Shown here one piece after another: positions 2,735 to 63,060 of a stretch of DNA of 64,000 nucleotides. Source of the stretch: Escherichia phage vB_Eco_mar004NP2. How positions within the stretch are numbered: the stretch's first letter is position 1; the number at the start of each line of letters is the position of its first letter. Both the position numbers and the translations under genes were made by a program. The stretch is from the sequence record OR896837.1. One strand, 5' to 3'. The notes under the pieces were generated by a model. The model made no database searches. It was not told where the DNA came from and was given only the letters and a program-made list of their open reading frames with translations.

Positions 2735-2947
2735 ATGAGAGTTCACAAGGTAGATAAAGAACGTATCTATTTTATTATGGATTCTGGGGCGTATGGTTCC
2801 ATTCTCCGTGGGGATATAGCTAAATTATGTTTAGTAAATACTTGGATGGACGAAGGGAAGATTGATCCTAGGGTGGGATTGTGCTTATCTGGGCCCGCCC
2901 TTTATATTGCTAGTGCAGAAATTGAAATGTTTGAGGAACAAGAATGA
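2735..2947 (+). CDS. Hypothetical protein (70 aa)
   Basis: ORF track; SD gagaggag upstream; first gene of a translationally coupled run. Confidence 0.5.
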   Translation: MRVHKVDKERIYFIMDSGAYGSILRGDIAKLCLVNTWMDEGKIDPRVGLCLSGPALYIASAEIEMFEEQE

Positions 2948-3147
2948 AGAACGTAAAACATCTTAAATATCGCTTAATTTACAACGGACGTATGGAAACA
3001 GAAGACCTGGCCCAGTTAGCTATTAATTCTAATGAGGTTACAGTGCGTGCGCTGGCAATTGAAAAGTTGCGTGCTTCTTATGAAAATCGTGTTATGGAAC
3101 TAGAGGAGAAACTTTATGGCATTCTCGAAGCCGATGCTACCAGATAA
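2944..3147 (+). CDS. Hypothetical protein (67 aa)
   Basis: ORF track; ATGA overlap with upstream stop; SD gagga 6 nt upstream. Confidence 0.5.
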   Translation: MKNVKHLKYRLIYNGRMETEDLAQLAINSNEVTVRALAIEKLRASYENRVMELEEKLYGILEADATR

Positions 3148-3337
3148 GGGTTTAAATGCCGCTTTGGAAAACGCATTAATGCAGCATTGGGAAACTGGCT
3201 ATAAGGATGGTGTTGAATCCTGCGCTAATATGCTAGAAGTTATTGCTAATACCTTAATGGAGAAAGGCAATAAAGAATTAGCTGAGCTATTAGACAGTAT
3301 TGGGCAAAACTTCAGAGAACAGGTGGAAAATGCGTAG
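3116..3337 (+). CDS. Hypothetical protein (73 aa)
   Basis: ORF track; ggag 8 nt upstream of ATG; overlaps neighbours by a few codons. Confidence 0.45.
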   Translation: MAFSKPMLPDKGLNAALENALMQHWETGYKDGVESCANMLEVIANTLMEKGNKELAELLDSIGQNFREQVENA

Positions 3338-4148
3338 ATTAATTATTATTAGCGGTGCGGGTTTGAGTGTTGAAAGTGGTGTACGAGCTTTTCGTACTGA
3401 TACTGCTAGTGGTAAAGCACTGTGGGATGATTATGATCTAGAAGAAGTATGTAATATTCATGCCTTTCGTAGTAATTTTTACCATAAAACCCATATGTTT
3501 TACAACAAACGTCGTGAAGAGCTAAAAACTGTTGAACCCAATCTTGCACATTTGCGTATTGGTGAATGGTATAAACAATATCCAGGTCAGGTAGTAAACT
3601 TGACTACCAACGTTGATGACCTTATTGAGCGTGCTGGCGTTCCACATAGTGACATTCTGCACATTCACGGATATTTAAAAGAGGTTATTGTAGCTGATAG
3701 CTACAATAGTAGCAATAAACGGATTATTGATGTAGGGTACAATTCTATTGATCCAGATGATTATAAATGGGTTAAACCTAATGTAATCTTCTTTGGGGAG
3801 CATGCTCCAGCGTATGCAGAAATGTACAATATTTTTGATGGTATTACCAGTCAAGATATGATCATTGTGGTTGGTTGCTCTAACCAAGTAATTAACTTCT
3901 ACTGGGAATTATTTCCTGTTCTTAATTTGACTGCTGCGAAACTTATGGTTGTTAACTACTATGATAGTGCCCTCGCAGCGGAACCGGGCTATCAAGGTAT
4001 GACTCGTAGTGAGATGTACCAGCTGGAAGAACGTGGTATCCCTTACTGGAGTAAAGGTGCGGTAGATGCTTTCAACGACCCTGATTTTATTGCTCGTGTA
4101 GAAGCCCATTTAGAGGGTAGACCTTATGTGTCGAGAAGCAAGAAATAA
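3330..4148 (+). CDS. Sir2-family (sirtuin-like) NAD-dependent enzyme
   Basis: Start taken at ATG 3330 (MRRLIIISGAG) preceded by aggtgga; Sir2 motifs GAGLSVESGVRAFR, TTNVDDLIERAG, HIHGYL, KPNVIFFGE, VVGCSNQV read in translation; no CxxC zinc ribbon seen. Confidence 0.65.
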   Translation: MRRLIIISGAGLSVESGVRAFRTDTASGKALWDDYDLEEVCNIHAFRSNFYHKTHMFYNKRREELKTVEPNLAHLRIGEWYKQYPGQVVNLTTNVDDLIERAGVPHSDILHIHGYLKEVIVADSYNSSNKRIIDVGYNSIDPDDYKWVKPNVIFFGEHAPAYAEMYNIFDGITSQDMIIVVGCSNQVINFYWELFPVLNLTAAKLMVVNYYDSALAAEPGYQGMTRSEMYQLEERGIPYWSKGAVDAFNDPDFIARVEAHLEGRPYVSRSKK

Positions 4149-23831: not shown

Positions 23832-25650
23832 GACACTAAAATTTAGTAACGTTATGTCTTACGGTAGGGACATCGTAATTCATTTCGATAAGAATCCAGT
23901 TACTCAGTTAATCGGAGGAAACGGTCTAGGGAAGTCCACTATTGCTACTGTTATTGAGGAATTGTTTTATAGCAAGAACTCACGTGGTATCAAGAAGGAC
24001 GCCCTATTCTCTTGGGGTTCTCCGAAGAAAGAGTATGATATGCATGCTTACTTCTCGAAAGATGAAGATGAGTATGAATTGCATAAAGTAGTTAAATCAA
24101 CTGCTAAGGTTACACTGATTAAGAATGGAGAAGATATCAGTGGACACACAGCAACTCAAACGTACAAGATGATTGAAGAGATTATGGGTGGTGACTTCCA
24201 AACATTCACTAAACTAATCTATCAATCTGTTGGTTCCAATCTAGACTTCCTCAAAGCAACAGATGCAACACGTAAGGCTTTTCTTGTTAACTTGTTCAAT
24301 CAAGAACAGTATAAAGAAATGTCAGAAACTATTAAGGCTGACCGTAAAGAAATAGCAAATACCTTAAATAATTTGCAGGGCCAAATGGCTGTAATTACAA
24401 AAATCCTTAATGGAAAGAATAACTTGGGAACCTTACAAGAACCAGTCGAAGTACCAGAATTTGATGAAGAACCATTAGCACAAGAACTTACAGAATCGAA
24501 AATTAAGGCGGCATTAGCCAAGTCTCAAGAGGCTAATATTACTAAATTGCGTAATTTGGACAAAGCTGTACAAGTTGCCGAACAATCTTTCGAGCCTTTC
24601 AAAAATTTGCCTGCGCCCACCGACCAAAATGAAGAGATCTCGAGTGTTACGCGTGACCTAACGATTGTGACCTCACGTGCGGGCGAAGTCAAGAAACGTT
24701 ATCAGAAGTTCAAGCAAGAGGCTTCAAATACTGAATGTCCTACTTGTGGTACTCACCTGGATACAACTGCTGCTCAAAAAGCAATGGATATGGCTAGAAC
24801 AGAATATGATCCTCTGTTCAAAGAGAAGCAATCTCTTGAAACCAAGCTAGAACAGCTGAAGAAAGAACAACTTGAGTACACTACGTATATTAGAGCAAAG
24901 GATGCTTTGGATAAAGCAGTAGCAGCTAGAGACGAGTTCAAAAATTCAATGAGTGATGCTTCTTTTGAAGAACTCAATGTGCAAAACCTACAGGTGCAAA
25001 TACGACAATTAGAACAGGAAATTGCTGATGGACGTTCTAAGGTTGCAATTGCCAAAGAGCATAATGCAAATGTTGAATTAGCCAATGCAAAATATAAAGC
25101 GAAACTAGAACAGATTGAGAAAGCTGAGGCAGAAATGTCTGAGATTACTTCCAAACTGGATGAAGTATCAGAAGCTGTTGCTGATCTCGATATTCTGATC
25201 GCCGCATTGAAAAATCTGGTAGGGTATAAGCTAGAGCATAGTGTGAAAGTATTTGAAGAACTAATTAATAAATACCTTTCCATTATGACTGGTGGTAAGT
25301 TCGCACTTGGATTTGAACTTGATGAAACAAAATTACAAGTAGTAATCTTCAATGATGGAAACCGTACCAGTATGGAGAACTGCTCTACTGGTCAGCAAAG
25401 TCGAATCAACCTAGCAACTCTGTTAGCTATTCGAATGCTACTAACATCTATTAGTAAAGTTAATATTAATCTTCTATTCCTTGATGAAGTAATTAGCTTT
25501 ATTGATACGAAAGGACTTGACACCCTTGTTGAATTATTAAATGAGGAAGAAAGTCTAAACTCTATCATTGTTTCTCATGGGCATACGCATCCATTGGCCC
25601 ATAAGATTACTGTCAAAAAAGATGCAGAAGGATTTTCCTACTTAGAATAA
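23812..25650 (+). CDS. SbcC/Rad50-like ATPase subunit
   Basis: ATG 23812 (MSKITIK) preferred over ORF-track 23737; P-loop GNGLGKST, zinc-hook CPTCG within coiled coil, Walker B LLFLDEV. Confidence 0.8.
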   Translation: MSKITIKTLKFSNVMSYGRDIVIHFDKNPVTQLIGGNGLGKSTIATVIEELFYSKNSRGIKKDALFSWGSPKKEYDMHAYFSKDEDEYELHKVVKSTAKVTLIKNGEDISGHTATQTYKMIEEIMGGDFQTFTKLIYQSVGSNLDFLKATDATRKAFLVNLFNQEQYKEMSETIKADRKEIANTLNNLQGQMAVITKILNGKNNLGTLQEPVEVPEFDEEPLAQELTESKIKAALAKSQEANITKLRNLDKAVQVAEQSFEPFKNLPAPTDQNEEISSVTRDLTIVTSRAGEVKKRYQKFKQEASNTECPTCGTHLDTTAAQKAMDMARTEYDPLFKEKQSLETKLEQLKKEQLEYTTYIRAKDALDKAVAARDEFKNSMSDASFEELNVQNLQVQIRQLEQEIADGRSKVAIAKEHNANVELANAKYKAKLEQIEKAEAEMSEITSKLDEVSEAVADLDILIAALKNLVGYKLEHSVKVFEELINKYLSIMTGGKFALGFELDETKLQVVIFNDGNRTSMENCSTGQQSRINLATLLAIRMLLTSISKVNINLLFLDEVISFIDTKGLDTLVELLNEEESLNSIIVSHGHTHPLAHKITVKKDAEGFSYLE

Positions 25651-48439: not shown

Positions 48440-48922
48440 TTAGCCTCCAGAAACAGTAGGATTAACTGTTACAGCACATGCAGTAGAATCCTTACTTACT
48501 TGCTTACTATCTGTTACAGTTACTTTATAAGAGCCGGCATCCTTAGCTGCTGTAGGCTTAGTATAGGTAGCTCCTGAAGCACCAGGAATAGGAGAACCAT
48601 CTTTAGTCCATGCATAAGTATATGGACCAGTACCCCCAGTTGCAGTAACAGAAAGTGTTAATGCTGCTCCCTCTTCAACTGACATGCTCGCAATTAAATC
48701 TTTAGAAAGAGTTAATGGTGGAGCCGGAGGAATTGCTTTACCATAAGCCTCTACAAATTTCTTCCATACTTTACGATTAGTATGCGCAGATGAAAGCCCT
48801 AGTTCTCTACGCAGAAAAGCATAGCTAGGAACATATTTATGCGCAGCAACCGTAGCAAAGAAGATATGAGATTCTGGCAGTTTTTCACCAAAAATGGTCC
48901 TCAGACCACTATAATCAATCAT
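48440..48922 (-). CDS. Capsid decoration protein with Ig-like domain (T5 pb10-like)
   Basis: C-terminal Ig-like segment LTLSVTATGGTGPYTYAWTKDGSPIPGASGATY. Confidence 0.65.
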   Translation of the reverse strand: MIDYSGLRTIFGEKLPESHIFFATVAAHKYVPSYAFLRRELGLSSAHTNRKVWKKFVEAYGKAIPPAPPLTLSKDLIASMSVEEGAALTLSVTATGGTGPYTYAWTKDGSPIPGASGATYTKPTAAKDAGSYKVTVTDSKQVSKDSTACAVTVNPTVSGG

Positions 48923-48924
48923 TC

Positions 48925-50136
48925 TTAATCTCCCTCGGTGGAACTCTTGGGTCTACCACCTTCTTGACCAGATACACCTGTTGCAGAACCAGCGACGTTA
49001 GCAGGAATACGGATCTTATTCATCTGCTCATCATCTAAAGGTTCAAGGTTCAGCTCTGAACGAGCTTCGTTACCGGTTATAATACCATTATTAACCAATG
49101 AGGTTAAATGTTTAGCCTCTGCTTCTTTATCTGGTGTTAATGCTGCGACTTCCTTAGTATTCGGAGTGATCTTATAACCAAAAAAGAAAGTAAGAGAACT
49201 AGTCAGTTTGCTCAGCATAGGAATGACAGTCATATAATAGAACAGTTCGATGTTTGGTCGAATGTTCGCATTATTACCCCCACCAAGCAACACTTGCGGA
49301 ACACCAAAGGCTAGACAGATAGATTTATTAAATCCTTCAATGTCTTCCTTAAAGTCTAGATCTTTAAAGGAGGATATTTGGGAGTACGGTTTAGCTTTCA
49401 TACCACCATCTAGAATCAGGACAGAAGACTGACCAGTACTAGGATTATAATCGAGTTGTAATTCTTCTTGTTTACGCTCACGCAATTTCTTGTTCAGGAT
49501 TTCATCCGTCTCAAGAATAAGACCAATCACGGTTCCGTTATCTAGGAATTTCTCTTTAAAGTTAAGCATCTTAGAACGCTTTTCAAGAGAATCAATAACA
49601 GTAGCAACACGAGATTGTCCAGAAATTTGAGAATTTGTGCCACACACGTAACTGTTATCCTTTATGAAGATAATCTCATCTACGCGATAGTCTATCTGAT
49701 TATTAAATGTAAATTTTTTGATAAACTTATTGGCATCTGCCTCGACCTGCATAAGAGCAGCCGGGACATGGTAAAGCGATGTGCCATCCCAATAGATGTA
49801 TGCACAACCTTCAAAAAGTAGGTCAGTGACTACAAGTCTACGGAATGTGCTTATATCCATGAATGGATTAGGTCGTACATTTAAGAGAGTGTCTAGAGTC
49901 TTTGTTTTGACGCCATTAGCGTACGTAACAATATTATATTTATCTCCGACAGTATAAGAACACTCCGCCGCACTATCTATAACCATATTGGCAGTTCGAT
50001 TGAGAATCTCAATCTTGCTATAGGCTTGTCCAGTGGTAAAAGGCTTACGGTTAGTGCGATGACTAACTGGTTCCATGTCTCTTATAATACGTTGACCCGG
50101 ATTTAGCTTTTCAGTAATCCAGCTTTTAAAACCCAT
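48925..50136 (-). CDS. Portal protein (T5 pb7-like)
   Basis: 403 aa, upstream of the protease/capsid genes; size matches T5 portal from memory. Confidence 0.8.
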   Translation of the reverse strand: MGFKSWITEKLNPGQRIIRDMEPVSHRTNRKPFTTGQAYSKIEILNRTANMVIDSAAECSYTVGDKYNIVTYANGVKTKTLDTLLNVRPNPFMDISTFRRLVVTDLLFEGCAYIYWDGTSLYHVPAALMQVEADANKFIKKFTFNNQIDYRVDEIIFIKDNSYVCGTNSQISGQSRVATVIDSLEKRSKMLNFKEKFLDNGTVIGLILETDEILNKKLRERKQEELQLDYNPSTGQSSVLILDGGMKAKPYSQISSFKDLDFKEDIEGFNKSICLAFGVPQVLLGGGNNANIRPNIELFYYMTVIPMLSKLTSSLTFFFGYKITPNTKEVAALTPDKEAEAKHLTSLVNNGIITGNEARSELNLEPLDDEQMNKIRIPANVAGSATGVSGQEGGRPKSSTEGD

Positions 50137-50588
50137 TATAAGAACCTTGCGAATCCTGATTTTGTTTCAGTCTTGACTTGTGTCTTTTCTTGAGGATTCT
50201 GTAATTTGTCTTTCTGCTTTTGAACCCACGCTTTTTGCTTATTAGCAGAAAATAAAGGAGGTTCTTTTGTGTAAACCTTATGTAATAATTGGTGATGGTG
50301 CTGGCACAATGTTACCACGTCCCTAACTAACTCATGCTCATATTTCTTGTAGAATGCTTCCCTATTTGAAAGGACGATATTCTCATCAGTGAAATCCAGC
50401 TGGAGTTCTTTAGCAAATTTTTTTATTAGCTGAGATATAGTATGATAATGGTGAAGTTCTAGGTCTTCACTACTACCACATATAGCACAGCAACCATCCT
50501 TACTATACCTAGATTTTATACCATCCCTCATTATGGAAATGGCATCACGTTTGTACTTAGTATTAGTGGCCATAATCCTCCAATCCAA
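50136..50588 (-). CDS. HNH endonuclease (free-standing, homing-type)
   Basis: CCAICGSSEDLELHHYH ... CQHHHQLLH: HNH signature with zinc-binding Cys pairs. Confidence 0.7.
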   Translation of the reverse strand: MDWRIMATNTKYKRDAISIMRDGIKSRYSKDGCCAICGSSEDLELHHYHTISQLIKKFAKELQLDFTDENIVLSNREAFYKKYEHELVRDVVTLCQHHHQLLHKVYTKEPPLFSANKQKAWVQKQKDKLQNPQEKTQVKTETKSGFARFL

Positions 50589-51237
50589 AGCTACTTAGAA
50601 AGATTACTATATCCTCAGGAGCAACATTAAAAAATTCCGTGCTTCCTGTAAAATTAGAAAACCCACAGTTTTTATTATAATATTCTCTGTGAACTTCCTT
50701 TTCTAAATCTAAAGCAGTCTCTCTATCTGGCAGATGATACATGGTGAACAAGTATAGGTCAGAAAATCCAGATTCTCTTTTAACTTCATTCAGCCGTTTC
50801 TCAGGGTATAAGCTTATGCCTACTTTAGTACCACTAGAGGAGGACATGATATAGAGGAATCCGCCATTCTCCCACTTAAGAGAACAATAAGGACATCTCT
50901 TACCTTGAGTCAATCCATCTAAGGTAATTAAACAGTCATGCCCATTATTGCAGCGTAGATGTAGTTTTGTTTTAGCATTAGTATAGCTGCTTAACAGAGT
51001 ATACCCTATATTAGATATTCTGTTATTAACTTCATCTAACGATATTGTATTATTGGAGCAGTGTGGACAACCTCTCCCCATATGGAGTATAGAATGTGGT
51101 GTTGCTTCCCAAACATGTGCTCTCTGGCATTTAAATACTGTTTTTGTACGTTGGTTTACATACTCACCGACAATTTGGATTCCACGATCAGCTAATCTAA
51201 TATTTATATCTTTTATTGTTAGCTTTTGTCGACCCAT
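50563..51237 (-). CDS. Putative zinc-finger endonuclease (homing-endonuclease-like, possible GIY-YIG-type C-terminal half)
   Basis: Two CPxC pairs; C-terminal GGFLYIM...GTKVGIS...R...E block reminiscent of GIY-YIG; weak. Confidence 0.45.
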   Translation of the reverse strand: MGRQKLTIKDINIRLADRGIQIVGEYVNQRTKTVFKCQRAHVWEATPHSILHMGRGCPHCSNNTISLDEVNNRISNIGYTLLSSYTNAKTKLHLRCNNGHDCLITLDGLTQGKRCPYCSLKWENGGFLYIMSSSSGTKVGISLYPEKRLNEVKRESGFSDLYLFTMYHLPDRETALDLEKEVHREYYNKNCGFSNFTGSTEFFNVAPEDIVIFLSSFGLEDYGH

Positions 51238-51408
51238 AGAATCTCCTACACCCCATGTAGAGCATTAATTTTTCTTGTTTACGTTCTATTATGGGAGAAG
51301 TTCTCCCGATCAATGAATATAGTATACATAATCGTATCGAATTTGTAAAGGGGATTTTAAAATGCAGGAATGGGATACCAACTGAGTAGTATCCCTTCCT
51401 ATACTTAT

Positions 51409-52725
51409 TTATTTACCACGGGAAATAGAGTAAATTCCATAGCGCAGTGCATCACAAAGGTGAGAGTTAGCATCATGACGTGGTTTTTCACGTGATAATT
51501 TTTCTTCACCTTCTTGGAAATCCCATTTATAGTTCTGCAACGCATGGATTAATGAGGAACATGAAACATCTACAATAATCTTGCCTTGTTGGAATAGCGC
51601 TTGCAAGCATGCTAGGCCATCTAGGACAGATTTTTTAGCAGGGGCTGATGCAATTTCATGTTCATAAGCTAAGTCCTGGCGGAACTGAGCTGCCGCGGAG
51701 TCAACAAAAATACGATCAACTTTATAACGATCTATACAGTGCTGAATGTAAGCAGCATGCTGAGCTGTAGTTTTCTCCGCCTGCTGATACTCTTCTAATA
51801 CATAGTAAGTATCCGTATCGTAATGATACTTAATAGTAAGAACTGCTGTAGGATCACGATAACCAACGTCGATACCAAGCAACGTTTCGAATGCTTCATC
51901 ATCTTTAAAGAAATGACGCATACCCTTAAGGTCTTTAACATGGTCAATAGCATTGAAAGTATCAAAAATCTGACCTTCAAATACAGAGAAGTCAGCTTCA
52001 TATTCCTGGCGGAAGTAGTTTTTACTAACCGTACGACGTGCTTCTTCTATATCATTCAGGTCAGCACGAGGGTTATCACGATATGTACCATGAATAGATA
52101 CCCAGTTAGGCAACGTATCATCAAATCCGTAGGCGTAAAACTCTTTAAACCAGTTACCTCCACGAGGTGTGGAAATAAATAGAGCCTTAGAATTAGGTTT
52201 ATCTAGAGTAGGACGCAGCTGAACCCTGAAGGCATCACCACCCACATCGGAAATTGCCGCCTCGTCAAAGATGATAAAATCATATGAACGTCCAACCGCG
52301 GAGTCAGCCTGAGCAGCGGAAGCTAGTTTAAACAGAGAACCATTAGCTAACTCAATTTCCTTATCTTTAGCGTTCTCACGTTCAGTTTGTAGGCCATATT
52401 TTTTAATAAGACCACGAATCTGAGACCATCCGATGTTGGCCAGTGAATAGTTAGGAGCAACTACTAACACCTTCACATTAGGTTCCAGCAATTTTAGGAA
52501 CCCAAGAGTATATGCGATGAAGGATTTACCTACACGGCGTGATACACACGCCGTTACAAAACGATGTCTAGGATCCTCTAGAGCATTAATAATCGCTATT
52601 TGAGGACCATTAGGTGTAATACCTTCTTGTGCTAGTATTCCCGAAACAGGTAGACGAAAGAAACGTTTATCTATTCCGAAATCAATAACATCTACTGTAT
52701 TAACGTAAGGTCTTGATACTTCCAT
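51409..52725 (-). CDS. Terminase large subunit
   Basis: 438 aa; ATPase Walker A (ACVSRRVGKS) and nuclease half. Confidence 0.85.
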   Translation of the reverse strand: MEVSRPYVNTVDVIDFGIDKRFFRLPVSGILAQEGITPNGPQIAIINALEDPRHRFVTACVSRRVGKSFIAYTLGFLKLLEPNVKVLVVAPNYSLANIGWSQIRGLIKKYGLQTERENAKDKEIELANGSLFKLASAAQADSAVGRSYDFIIFDEAAISDVGGDAFRVQLRPTLDKPNSKALFISTPRGGNWFKEFYAYGFDDTLPNWVSIHGTYRDNPRADLNDIEEARRTVSKNYFRQEYEADFSVFEGQIFDTFNAIDHVKDLKGMRHFFKDDEAFETLLGIDVGYRDPTAVLTIKYHYDTDTYYVLEEYQQAEKTTAQHAAYIQHCIDRYKVDRIFVDSAAAQFRQDLAYEHEIASAPAKKSVLDGLACLQALFQQGKIIVDVSCSSLIHALQNYKWDFQEGEEKLSREKPRHDANSHLCDALRYGIYSISRGK

Positions 52726-53207
52726 TACTTCTTACCTCCAGTAGCTAGGGAAGTAATTAAGTCCATGTAGTTTTGATCCCCAGCTCCAGCAATAATATTA
52801 TTCTGGATGTTGGTCTGGTTAGCTGGAGTACGGGCTGCTGCCTTCACTTTCTCCAGTTCTACCATCATTTTCATTTCTTCCATTTTCATTTTATGTGCTT
52901 TCCAGAGAATATCCATAATATCTTGGTCAGAACCCATGCCAGTTTCTTCTAGTTCCTCTAGTTTACGCTTGATAACTTCATCCAGAACACCAAATAAACG
53001 ATCTCTGTTACGGAAACCACTCTCCATAAAAATATCATTTAAGTAGTTCTTAACTTCACTACGATTCATAATATCTCGAAAAGCAATTTCGGACATCCCA
53101 AGACTACGTGCGGCAGAAGGCACATCGCTGCCACACTGTAAATATGCTTCAATTACATCCATCCCTTCAGGGGACATAAGATCTGGTACTAATACATCAT
53201 TTGCCAT
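52725..53207 (-). CDS. Terminase small subunit (putative)
   Basis: 160 aa with N-terminal HTH-like segment, immediately upstream of the large subunit with overlapping stop/start. Confidence 0.55.
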
Positions 53208-62298: not shown

Positions 62299-63060
62299 AT
62301 GAGGCTATATAAACCAGGTAACGCAACCGTCTTAAAAGGTGCGCTGCGTAACCTGCTGGACGGTAGCAGAACAACCAGCATTAAACATTTTATTAACAAG
62401 GCTGAAACTATTCACCAAAACTTTTTTGGTGATTTCGATGCCTATGATATGAATAGTTTTCTACCGTTATATAAACAAGGGGCAACGCTTGTTTTATATA
62501 ATCAAGATTATCAATTGCTCACTAGTCGAGGGCCGGATACTGATTTCATAATCGTAAAAGGTAGCACAGTAAAAGCCTATGATACTGGGGCAGGCTTAGA
62601 AGTTTTTTCAATAGAAAATTATGAAGCCAACCCCAATGATCTTTATGATATTGAAAATTTTCTTGATTCATTTTGGCGTTATTTATCAGTTGGCTGGAAT
62701 CGGTCGGATTGTGACGGGTATCGTTTCGCGGCTGTAATGGCCTTTGATGATAACGGTAATTTTTTGTTACCGTCGGAAGTGTACCCTTATGTATATGAGG
62801 GGGATATTGAAAGCGCGGGCTTTTCTTTCTGGAAGGAGGAAGATCAGCCTATTGACAACACGGAAAAACATGCTGTAAATTCTAACACTCAAAGCGTTAA
62901 CACTCAAACTACTGAAAACAAAGGAAATAATACCATGACCAAGATCGCTAATATCGTTGCCGCTAATAAATCCGCTGTTGTAAATGCTGCAAAACTGGAA
63001 GCTGGCAAAATTGCATTGACTCAAATCACGAAAGTAGCGGCTAAAAACCGCCGTTTATGA
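62299..63060 (+). CDS. Hypothetical protein (253 aa)
   Basis: ORF track; SD gggagg upstream. Confidence 0.55.
   Translation: MRLYKPGNATVLKGALRNLLDGSRTTSIKHFINKAETIHQNFFGDFDAYDMNSFLPLYKQGATLVLYNQDYQLLTSRGPDTDFIIVKGSTVKAYDTGAGLEVFSIENYEANPNDLYDIENFLDSFWRYLSVGWNRSDCDGYRFAAVMAFDDNGNFLLPSEVYPYVYEGDIESAGFSFWKEEDQPIDNTEKHAVNSNTQSVNTQTTENKGNNTMTKIANIVAANKSAVVNAAKLEAGKIALTQITKVAAKNRRL

Follow-up and report, generated by a model that had tools for sequence, protein, structure and literature searches.

What are two nuclease genes doing between the terminase and portal genes of a T5-like phage, and did one or both of them arrive there as inserts? The question is raised by a 64,000-nucleotide (nt) stretch of DNA from Escherichia phage vB_Eco_mar004NP2 (sequence record OR896837.1; the whole stretch is hereafter called the window), which belongs to a T5-like phage (Tequintavirus) and is at this locus 99% identical to Salmonella phage SPLA5b and 96% identical to T5. 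Two open reading frames (ORFs) overlap head to tail on the minus strand between terL, encoding the large terminase subunit, and the portal gene: one for an HNH protein, at 50136-50588 if its 150 amino acids (aa) are counted from a TTG, and one for a 224-aa protein, at 50563-51237. A sequence-only reading had located both ORFs correctly, and had regarded both as free-standing homing endonucleases inserted in tandem, either of which could double as a nicking partner for terminase. Both are real genes rather than chance frames, with homologue E-values down to 1e-148 for the 224-aa protein and 1e-87 for the HNH protein. The answer is not the same for the two. The HNH gene is sciA, encoding the nicking endonuclease of T5, and it is a resident core gene, neither an insert nor a homing enzyme. 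The 224-aa gene is optional and mobile, and its genomic pattern is the one expected of a free-standing homing endonuclease gene (HEG). We assign a probability of roughly 0.8 to these identities together with the optional and mobile status of the 224-aa gene.

The resident nickase gene

The HNH protein is ~98-99% identical to the PDB chains 9QGV_A and 9QGX_A, which are named 'Nicking endonuclease'; according to the PDB title, the structure of SciA was solved on GCGC DNA. GenBank KM979355 labels the gene 'sciA, nicking site-specific endonuclease', all of the 74 database homologues (74/74) carry one precomputed family, PF26848, and UniRef calls one cluster 'Nicking endonuclease'. A profile of 36 SciA homologues has no sequence relative in the PDB except SciA itself, the protein has no hit in the local copy of Pfam-A, and NCBIfam and PADLOC searches gave nothing meaningful for it or for the 224-aa protein. 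Fold matches beyond SciA itself are weak (McrA, 4.1; GVE2 HNH, 3.5; Gme HNH nickase, 3.4). SciA has the beta-beta-alpha metal core, the catalytic histidine and the zinc-binding Cys/His pairs of an HNH or His-Me finger enzyme, and is a His-Me finger protein with CCCH zinc coordination. Its zinc and catalytic residues (C29, C32, H41, H42, C90, H93, H94 and H98) are, together with E39 and R71, invariant in the 36 homologues.

Where does this gene start? Translation almost certainly begins at the ATG at 50573, which gives a protein of 145 aa (50136..50573, minus strand) and an overlap of 11 nt with the 224-aa gene, because this ATG is annotated in the records of T5, IrisVonRoten and DT571/2, because in relatives lacking the HEG the homologous ATG is the start codon and follows a good ribosome-binding site, GAGGAG, and because the PDB residue name H42 corresponds to the second histidine of LELHHYH under ATG numbering alone. 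The TTG start giving 150 aa was rejected in its favour.

By tblastn, sciA was found in 899 phage records (Demerecviridae) at 901 places, with 898 at ≥80% coverage; duplicates between GenBank and RefSeq and partial assemblies are among the records counted. The gene is single copy, and the phages that carry it infect hosts such as Escherichia, Salmonella, Klebsiella, Proteus, Providencia, Vibrio and Aeromonas. All loci examined, among them those of DaisyDussoix, Sugarland and a Vibrio phage, have the order terL-sciA-portal, and no terL-portal junction without sciA occurs among the 899 matching records and the loci compared. The HNH gene is not an insert, since it is conserved at the same position in all relatives with no empty site, an outcome that the sequence-only reading had itself named as speaking against insertion.

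Irregular copies of sciA were seen in two records. In Klebsiella phage pKMKP103 (L037, 2501-2909), the tblastn match is in two pieces (residues 1-38 and 62-145) and sciA is annotated as a 119-aa coding sequence beside an intact HEG orthologue, representing either a disrupted nickase or a sequencing error. In the IMG/VR copy of Salmonella phage SP3 (L033, 3501-4993), sciA and the portal gene each match in two out-of-register pieces, which suggests frameshifts or assembly errors in that record.

The DNA of T5 is nicked in one strand only, with the consensus 5'-R/GCGCRGG-3' at major nicks; two late loci, sciA and sciB, are responsible for the nicks, and viable nick-less mutants have been reported (PMC3517423). 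In this scheme SciA would be made late and would cut one strand of the phage DNA at GCGC-containing sites, giving rise to the single-strand interruptions of T5 virion DNA. The idea that one of the two products is a nicking enzyme thus holds in a sense other than the one intended, with SciA as the maker of the classical T5 interruptions. The window contains five matches to RGCGCRGG, at 3219, 24610, 36705 and 38139 on the minus strand and at 62812 on the plus strand, which is not a significant enrichment (5 found against 2.4 expected, with 13 of 100 shuffles reaching 5). Of the five, only the match at 24610..24617 (minus strand; GGCGCAGG), in the D13 (SbcC-like) gene, is drawn on here, as it corresponds exactly, by homology, to an annotated nick of T5, the 'major DNA single-chain interruption' (AY543070, 78573/78574, minus strand, gene D13). 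It is a probable substrate at which SciA is predicted to nick the DNA of this phage.

The T5orf172 gene

The 224-aa gene (50563..51237, minus strand) is a free-standing T5orf172 gene of the GIY-YIG superfamily, of the homing-endonuclease type. The protein had been described from the sequence as having zinc fingers and a GIY-YIG-like C-terminal half, and a Pfam search bears this out: DUF4379 (a treble-clef zinc finger), the CapR-homology domain, T5orf172 and MUG113 all match above their curated cut-offs (PF10544 T5orf172, 34.4 bits with a cut-off of 20; PF13455 MUG113, 35.9 bits with a cut-off of 22.3), and PHROG 681 'endonuclease' matches at 2.8e-60. Alignment with relatives divides the N-terminal half into two CHCC zinc-ribbon/CapR-homology repeats of ~55 residues (residues ~5-60 and ~63-118), whose ligands are C37/H41/C57/C60 and C96/H100/C115/C118; database relatives have up to four or five such modules. 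The nuclease domain (~126-215) has the GIY-YIG fold, with Y129, R148, H183 and E201 as putative catalytic residues, which lie in the conserved motifs GFLYIM, KRL, EVH and TEFF and are common to the full-length homologues that keep this domain. The structure model of the protein rests on a shallow alignment, the word-index homologue search having given 9 hits, and Foldseek found no significant match for it.

T5orf172 is a subfamily of GIY-YIG HEGs that is enriched in T5-like phages, where its members are most often found next to terminase genes (PMC10448857). In relatives of the present phage, the 224-aa gene is annotated as 'putative homing endonuclease' or 'T5orf172 domain-containing protein', and sciA as 'nicking endonuclease'. 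No paralogue of either protein is encoded elsewhere within the window.

Occupied, empty and decayed sites

Is the T5orf172 gene an insert? A 3.9-kb query around the locus matches 448 phage records. Within the phage collection, 73 records match the 727-nt insert over ≥80% of its length, and 342 match a 301-nt probe across the empty junction without a break. The spacing between terL and sciA is 114 nt in DaisyDussoix and 97 nt in a Vibrio T5-like phage, both of which lack the HEG. In the window, terL (51409-52725, minus strand; Pfam Terminase_6N and Terminase_6C) is the left flank of the insertion site. When the window is aligned with DaisyDussoix, the two are identical through the terL stop codon, a hairpin and a promoter-like element up to ...ATATTCAT, and the left insertion junction lies after ...TATACTATATTCAT. 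Past this point, DaisyDussoix continues with GAGGAG-N6-ATG of sciA, and the window with a leader of 75 nt followed by the HEG, in whose last codons the ATG of sciA lies (GGAGGATTATGGCCACTAA). The HEG has replaced sciA's own ribosome-binding site, and consequently the start of sciA is now inside the 3' end of the HEG.

Decayed copies complete the series. A HEG remnant of 518 nt is found in DT571/2 (L004, 2483-3000), in the loci L010 and L032, and in DT57C, Gostya9 and smaug, the four named phages and one metagenomic contig making up the remnant set. Its first 48 codons are intact except for a change of ATG to ACG, its middle part is ~70% identical and a deletion has removed the nuclease domain; an ORF is no longer present. 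The last 21 codons of the HEG are kept because they hold the ribosome-binding site and start of sciA, and the remnant phages still carry the sciA allele linked to the HEG, as described below. Erwinia phage Key is reported to have the nicking endonuclease and to be missing the endonuclease between it and terL (PMC10194208). In Klebsiella phage Sugarland (Sugarlandvirus), the site is taken by a HEG orthologue of 53% identity, which likewise overlaps sciA by 11 nt.

Synteny with T5-like genomes, then, separates the two genes that the sequence-only reading had treated alike: there are empty sites for the 224-aa gene, to which alone the word 'inserted' applies, and the HNH gene is always in place. 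For the same reason the designation as a free-standing homing endonuclease is retained for the 224-aa gene, with its empty-site alleles and decayed copies, and dropped for the HNH gene, which encodes the SciA nickase.

Two alleles of sciA

Proteins were compared over 33 loci plus the window. TerL is 99-100% identical to that of the window in most relatives with or without the HEG, and 95-96% identical in a few diverged backgrounds; the portal protein is mostly 97-99% identical, and for both proteins identity is independent of the HEG state. SciA is 96-100% identical in HEG-bearing and remnant-bearing genomes, 87% identical in SP01, a variant HEG-bearing lineage, and 81-85% identical in HEG-less genomes; the latter allele, which most relatives carry, differs in residues 3-91. 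The same pattern is seen in the mean nt identities of genome pairs, given in the order both with the HEG, one with it, and neither: 91.6/91.4/91.6 for terL, 96.8/96.4/96.5 for portal and 95.6/79.7/95.9 for sciA. Two allele classes of sciA, with ~80% identity, track the presence of the HEG. The nearest terL or portal neighbours of HEG-bearing genomes are mostly HEG-less; the distribution of the 224-aa gene is incongruent with its flanking genes, and the gene has spread horizontally.

Sliding identity against four HEG-less genomes is 97-100% as far as the junction, 67-83% from 50573 to ~50300 and again 97-100% from ~50270. The sciA alleles differ at 31-35 synonymous and 22 non-synonymous codons, with all catalytic residues kept. 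These differences are confined to codons 2-91, except for codon 115 in one locus (L005) and five synonymous differences at codons 96-115 in another (L017), and the divergent tract ends at codon ~91-96, a boundary that recurs in a nearly invariant LC(Q/V)HHHQLLHKVYTKEPPLF-coding stretch. The resulting haplotype block, or mobile cassette, consists of the HEG 5' leader, the HEG and sciA codons 1-95 (50289..51312, minus strand), and extends from the left insertion junction, shortly past the promoter, to the recurrent recombination boundary in sciA. Salmonella phage S124, whose flanks are 80-90% identical to those of the window (terL ≤~86%), shares with it a block from ~51333 to ~50289 with 2 mismatches in ~1,045 nt, the HEG insert being 99.7% identical. 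Thus, a ~1.05-kb unit comprising the leader, the HEG and sciA codons 1-95 has recently been exchanged between diverged backgrounds.

A second HEG subtype, 87-89% identical in nt sequence, was noticed in SP01 (L015) and NR01 (L013) at 2837-3935, and 22 records fall in the 80-90% identity band of the HEG. This subtype is paired with a third sciA allele (86%) in SP01 and with the T5-type allele (96%) in NR01; as the pairings differ, recombination has also taken place inside the cassette.

Do the two alleles of sciA nick at different sites? This possibility was considered and found to be unsupported: the motif at the D13 nick site (GGCGCRGG) is kept in three HEG-less relatives, and this site, the sole one compared, is conserved with either allele.

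A possible route of spread

The combination of zinc-finger and T5orf172 domains, abundant empty-site alleles, decayed copies and a near-identical copy in a diverged background amounts to a homing signature for the 224-aa gene, and a mechanism can be outlined as follows. The zinc-ribbon/CapR-homology repeats would recognise and bind a stretch of the HEG-less allele, and the T5orf172 domain, with its GIY-YIG fold, would cut nearby. In a mixed infection, HEG-less genomes would thereby be cleaved by the HEG protein, either at the empty site or a short way downstream of it. Repair from the co-infecting HEG-bearing genome would then co-convert the HEG and sciA codons 1-95, the linked 5' allele of sciA being the cleavage-immune version. 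Continued activity of the HEG, its place of cleavage and the role of this cleavage, as opposed to ordinary recombination, in driving the spread are inferred from these comparisons. Cleavage would probably fall within the first ~280 nt of sciA in the HEG-less allele, a position that we propose only tentatively. A still more specific version, in which the HEG targets the 5' part of sciA in HEG-less phages so as to replace the catalytic two-thirds of a competitor's nickase by the linked immune allele, is conceivable but rather doubtful. If it is true, a selfish element maintains a two-allele polymorphism in a core enzyme of virion-DNA processing, and translational coupling might tie the expression of the HEG to nicking and packaging.

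Several points weigh against the picture given so far. The case for homing by the 224-aa nuclease is drawn from genome comparison, and bioinformatics alone cannot establish that a given nuclease gene is actively homing (Barth, Dunham & Seed 2023, PMC10448857); homing is likewise undemonstrated for the T5orf172 genes of ICP1 (PMC10448857). The left flank is too conserved to reveal co-conversion there, and the asymmetry of the block is uninformative on that side. The ~20% divergence of the linked 5' segment of sciA far exceeds what cleavage immunity needs, which suggests that the cassette was imported from a distant T5-like donor. The biochemistry of SciA is taken here from PDB titles, GenBank annotation and an older secondary citation, and the record counts contain the duplicates and partial assemblies mentioned above. 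Finally, T5-like phages recombine freely, as the mosaic terL illustrates, so that general recombination could move the cassette without any activity of the HEG.

Other readings of the locus

This last point leads to a reading in which the 224-aa gene is an inactive passenger, the cassette and the sciA alleles having been spread by the ordinary, high-frequency recombination of T5-like phages and not by targeted cleavage. It draws on the mosaic nature of the flanking genes themselves, on the existence of decayed HEG copies and on the position of the right boundary, where the nucleotide sequence of sciA hardly varies and a crossover would come naturally. We consider it a serious rival, though an improbable one. 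The reading frame of the gene is unbroken, and both the zinc ligands and the GIY-YIG-type residues of its product are conserved in 70-odd records as well as in the Klebsiella-phage orthologue of 53% identity; the left edge of the cassette coincides with the HEG junction; and the 99.7% identity of the cassette in a genome with terL at ≤~86% suggests recent, preferential spread.

A second question concerns the resident gene rather than the mobile one. Might SciA be mainly a terminase cofactor of the HK97 gp74 type, which stimulates TerL cutting in packaging and makes the nicks only incidentally? A link in function that would join nicking to packaging, based on the annotation of sciB as terS and on the invariant adjacency of the genes, is plausible but unproven, and no evidence was found that packaging requires SciA. 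The viability of nick-less T5 mutants (PMC3517423), the RNase H-like nuclease domain that T5 TerL itself possesses, and the marginal fold likeness to the packaging-associated GVE2 HNH, with no sequence similarity to other PDB entries, make a cofactor role quite unlikely as the main function, and SciA is best regarded as a nickase.

Less likely again is domestication, by which the 224-aa protein would have become a CapR-like DNA-binding regulator or would assist SciA or terminase, and the translational coupling of its gene with sciA would serve a function. A CapR-homology domain is indeed detected (CapR is a satellite repressor), the gene stands directly behind the late promoter with the start of sciA embedded in its 3' end, and the domestication of HEG-related proteins is documented (PMC10448857). 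Yet ~340 close relatives lack the 224-aa gene, and in these sciA is preceded by an ordinary ribosome-binding site; viable phages, DT57C and DT571/2 among them, still carry pseudogenised copies; and the putative catalytic residues are kept. Invasion of the packaging operon by two homing endonucleases in tandem, suggested by the nuclease motifs of both genes and their head-to-tail overlap, was rejected and is barely credible, as the HNH gene stands once and at full length in 898 of 899 records across the family and no empty site is seen, as its product is SciA, a nickase of known structure, and as its alleles differ by more synonymous than non-synonymous changes with the catalytic residues all kept.

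The surrounding genes

The order on the minus strand is terS, terL, a 171-nt gap, the 224-aa ORF, the HNH ORF, portal, and the genes for the pb10 decoration protein, the prohead protease and the major capsid protein. The small terminase subunit gene terS (52725-53207, minus strand) is equated with sciB in T5 records. The portal gene (48925-50136, minus strand; Pfam Phage_portal, E 1e-50) corresponds to T5 pb7, and its start codon overlaps the stop codon of sciA, base 50136 being common to both ORFs.

A consensus scan predicts a sigma-70-like late promoter, TTTACA-N17-TATACT, at 51321..51349 (minus strand) with 10/12 matches. The element is identical in DaisyDussoix, DT571/2 and IrisVonRoten, its hexamers are recognisable in the Vibrio T5-like phage, whose proteins are ~50% identical, and the site carries a 'putative promoter' annotation in T5 st0. 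It would drive sciA and portal in HEG-less phages and HEG, sciA and portal in the window. Upstream of it, directly after the terL stop codon, lies a 7-bp GC-rich hairpin (GGGATAC...GTATCCC with a 10-nt loop; 51372-51395, minus strand), and a second small hairpin, GGGAGAACTTCTCCC, is present at ~51294-51308, at the opening of the HEG leader.

The terL DNA is merely ~91-93% identical among most relatives and is patchy, with 70-100% identity in windows of 40-60 nt, a pattern that points to strong purifying selection, with synonymous change at saturation and with mosaic recombination. The pb10 decoration gene (48440-48922) is far more variable than its neighbours, with 69-97% nt identity to relatives and a length of 738 nt in DT571/2 against 483 nt in the window; its Ig-like C-terminal part seems to have been exchanged or expanded.

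Significance

Both genes were known or annotated beforehand: a crystal structure of SciA is deposited, and T5orf172 HEGs beside the terminase genes of T5-like phages are in the literature. What is new here is modest: an explicit series of alleles, whether empty, occupied or decayed, and a dimorphism in the 5' two-thirds of sciA that is linked to the HEG. The result is mainly a clean-up of annotation: the HNH gene beside the T5 terminase is SciA, the maker of the long-puzzling single-strand interruptions of T5, and to take it for a mobile homing enzyme or for an HK97-type terminase cofactor would be mistaken. The T5orf172 gene, with its empty, occupied and decayed alleles and a co-transferred tract of ~1 kb, is a clean natural example of a free-standing HEG. 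As the sampled set holds both occupied (IrisVonRoten) and empty (DaisyDussoix) phages, it also offers a convenient system for finding out whether T5orf172 genes home, and the linkage of HEG and sciA allele could matter when nicking patterns are compared among T5-like phages.

Comparison with known systems

The closest known counterpart of the HNH protein is T5 SciA (9QGV/9QGX; T5p149 / ORF142; PF26848), which is the same protein, about two residues apart (L/I at 123 and the engineered H42 mutation), with equal length, an identical CCCH zinc and HH...H motif, and a gene in the equivalent place between terL and portal. T5 itself, like the window, carries the HEG-linked sciA allele, and there is no difference of substance between them. 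SciA also resembles the terminase-associated HNH proteins of the HK97 gp74 and GVE2 type in being a small phage HNH protein with nicking activity encoded beside terminase genes. The 224-aa protein has 13-16% sequence identity to the GIY-YIG domains of SLX1, I-TevI and UvrC, and unlike in these, the second 'YIG' tyrosine is replaced (V-G-I).

In the intronless homing of phage T4 by Seg and Mob endonucleases (SegF, SegG), a free-standing gene of the GIY-YIG class lies between essential genes and brings about localized marker exclusion or co-conversion of the adjacent segment. The mechanism proposed here resembles that of SegF and SegG in the sharp haplotype block next to the HEG; the 224-aa gene differs in belonging to the T5orf172 subfamily instead of the canonical GIY-YIG Seg group, and in its DNA-binding modules. 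The T5orf172 HEGs of ICP1 and T5-like phages share with it a nuclease domain at one end and CapR-homology/zinc-ribbon repeats at the other, a place beside a terminase gene, variable presence, frameshifted or deleted copies and a position at a boundary of genetic exchange (PMC10448857). The 224-aa gene differs from these in its co-transferred flank, which consists of the part of the resident nickase gene, two-thirds of it, that holds the catalytic residues.

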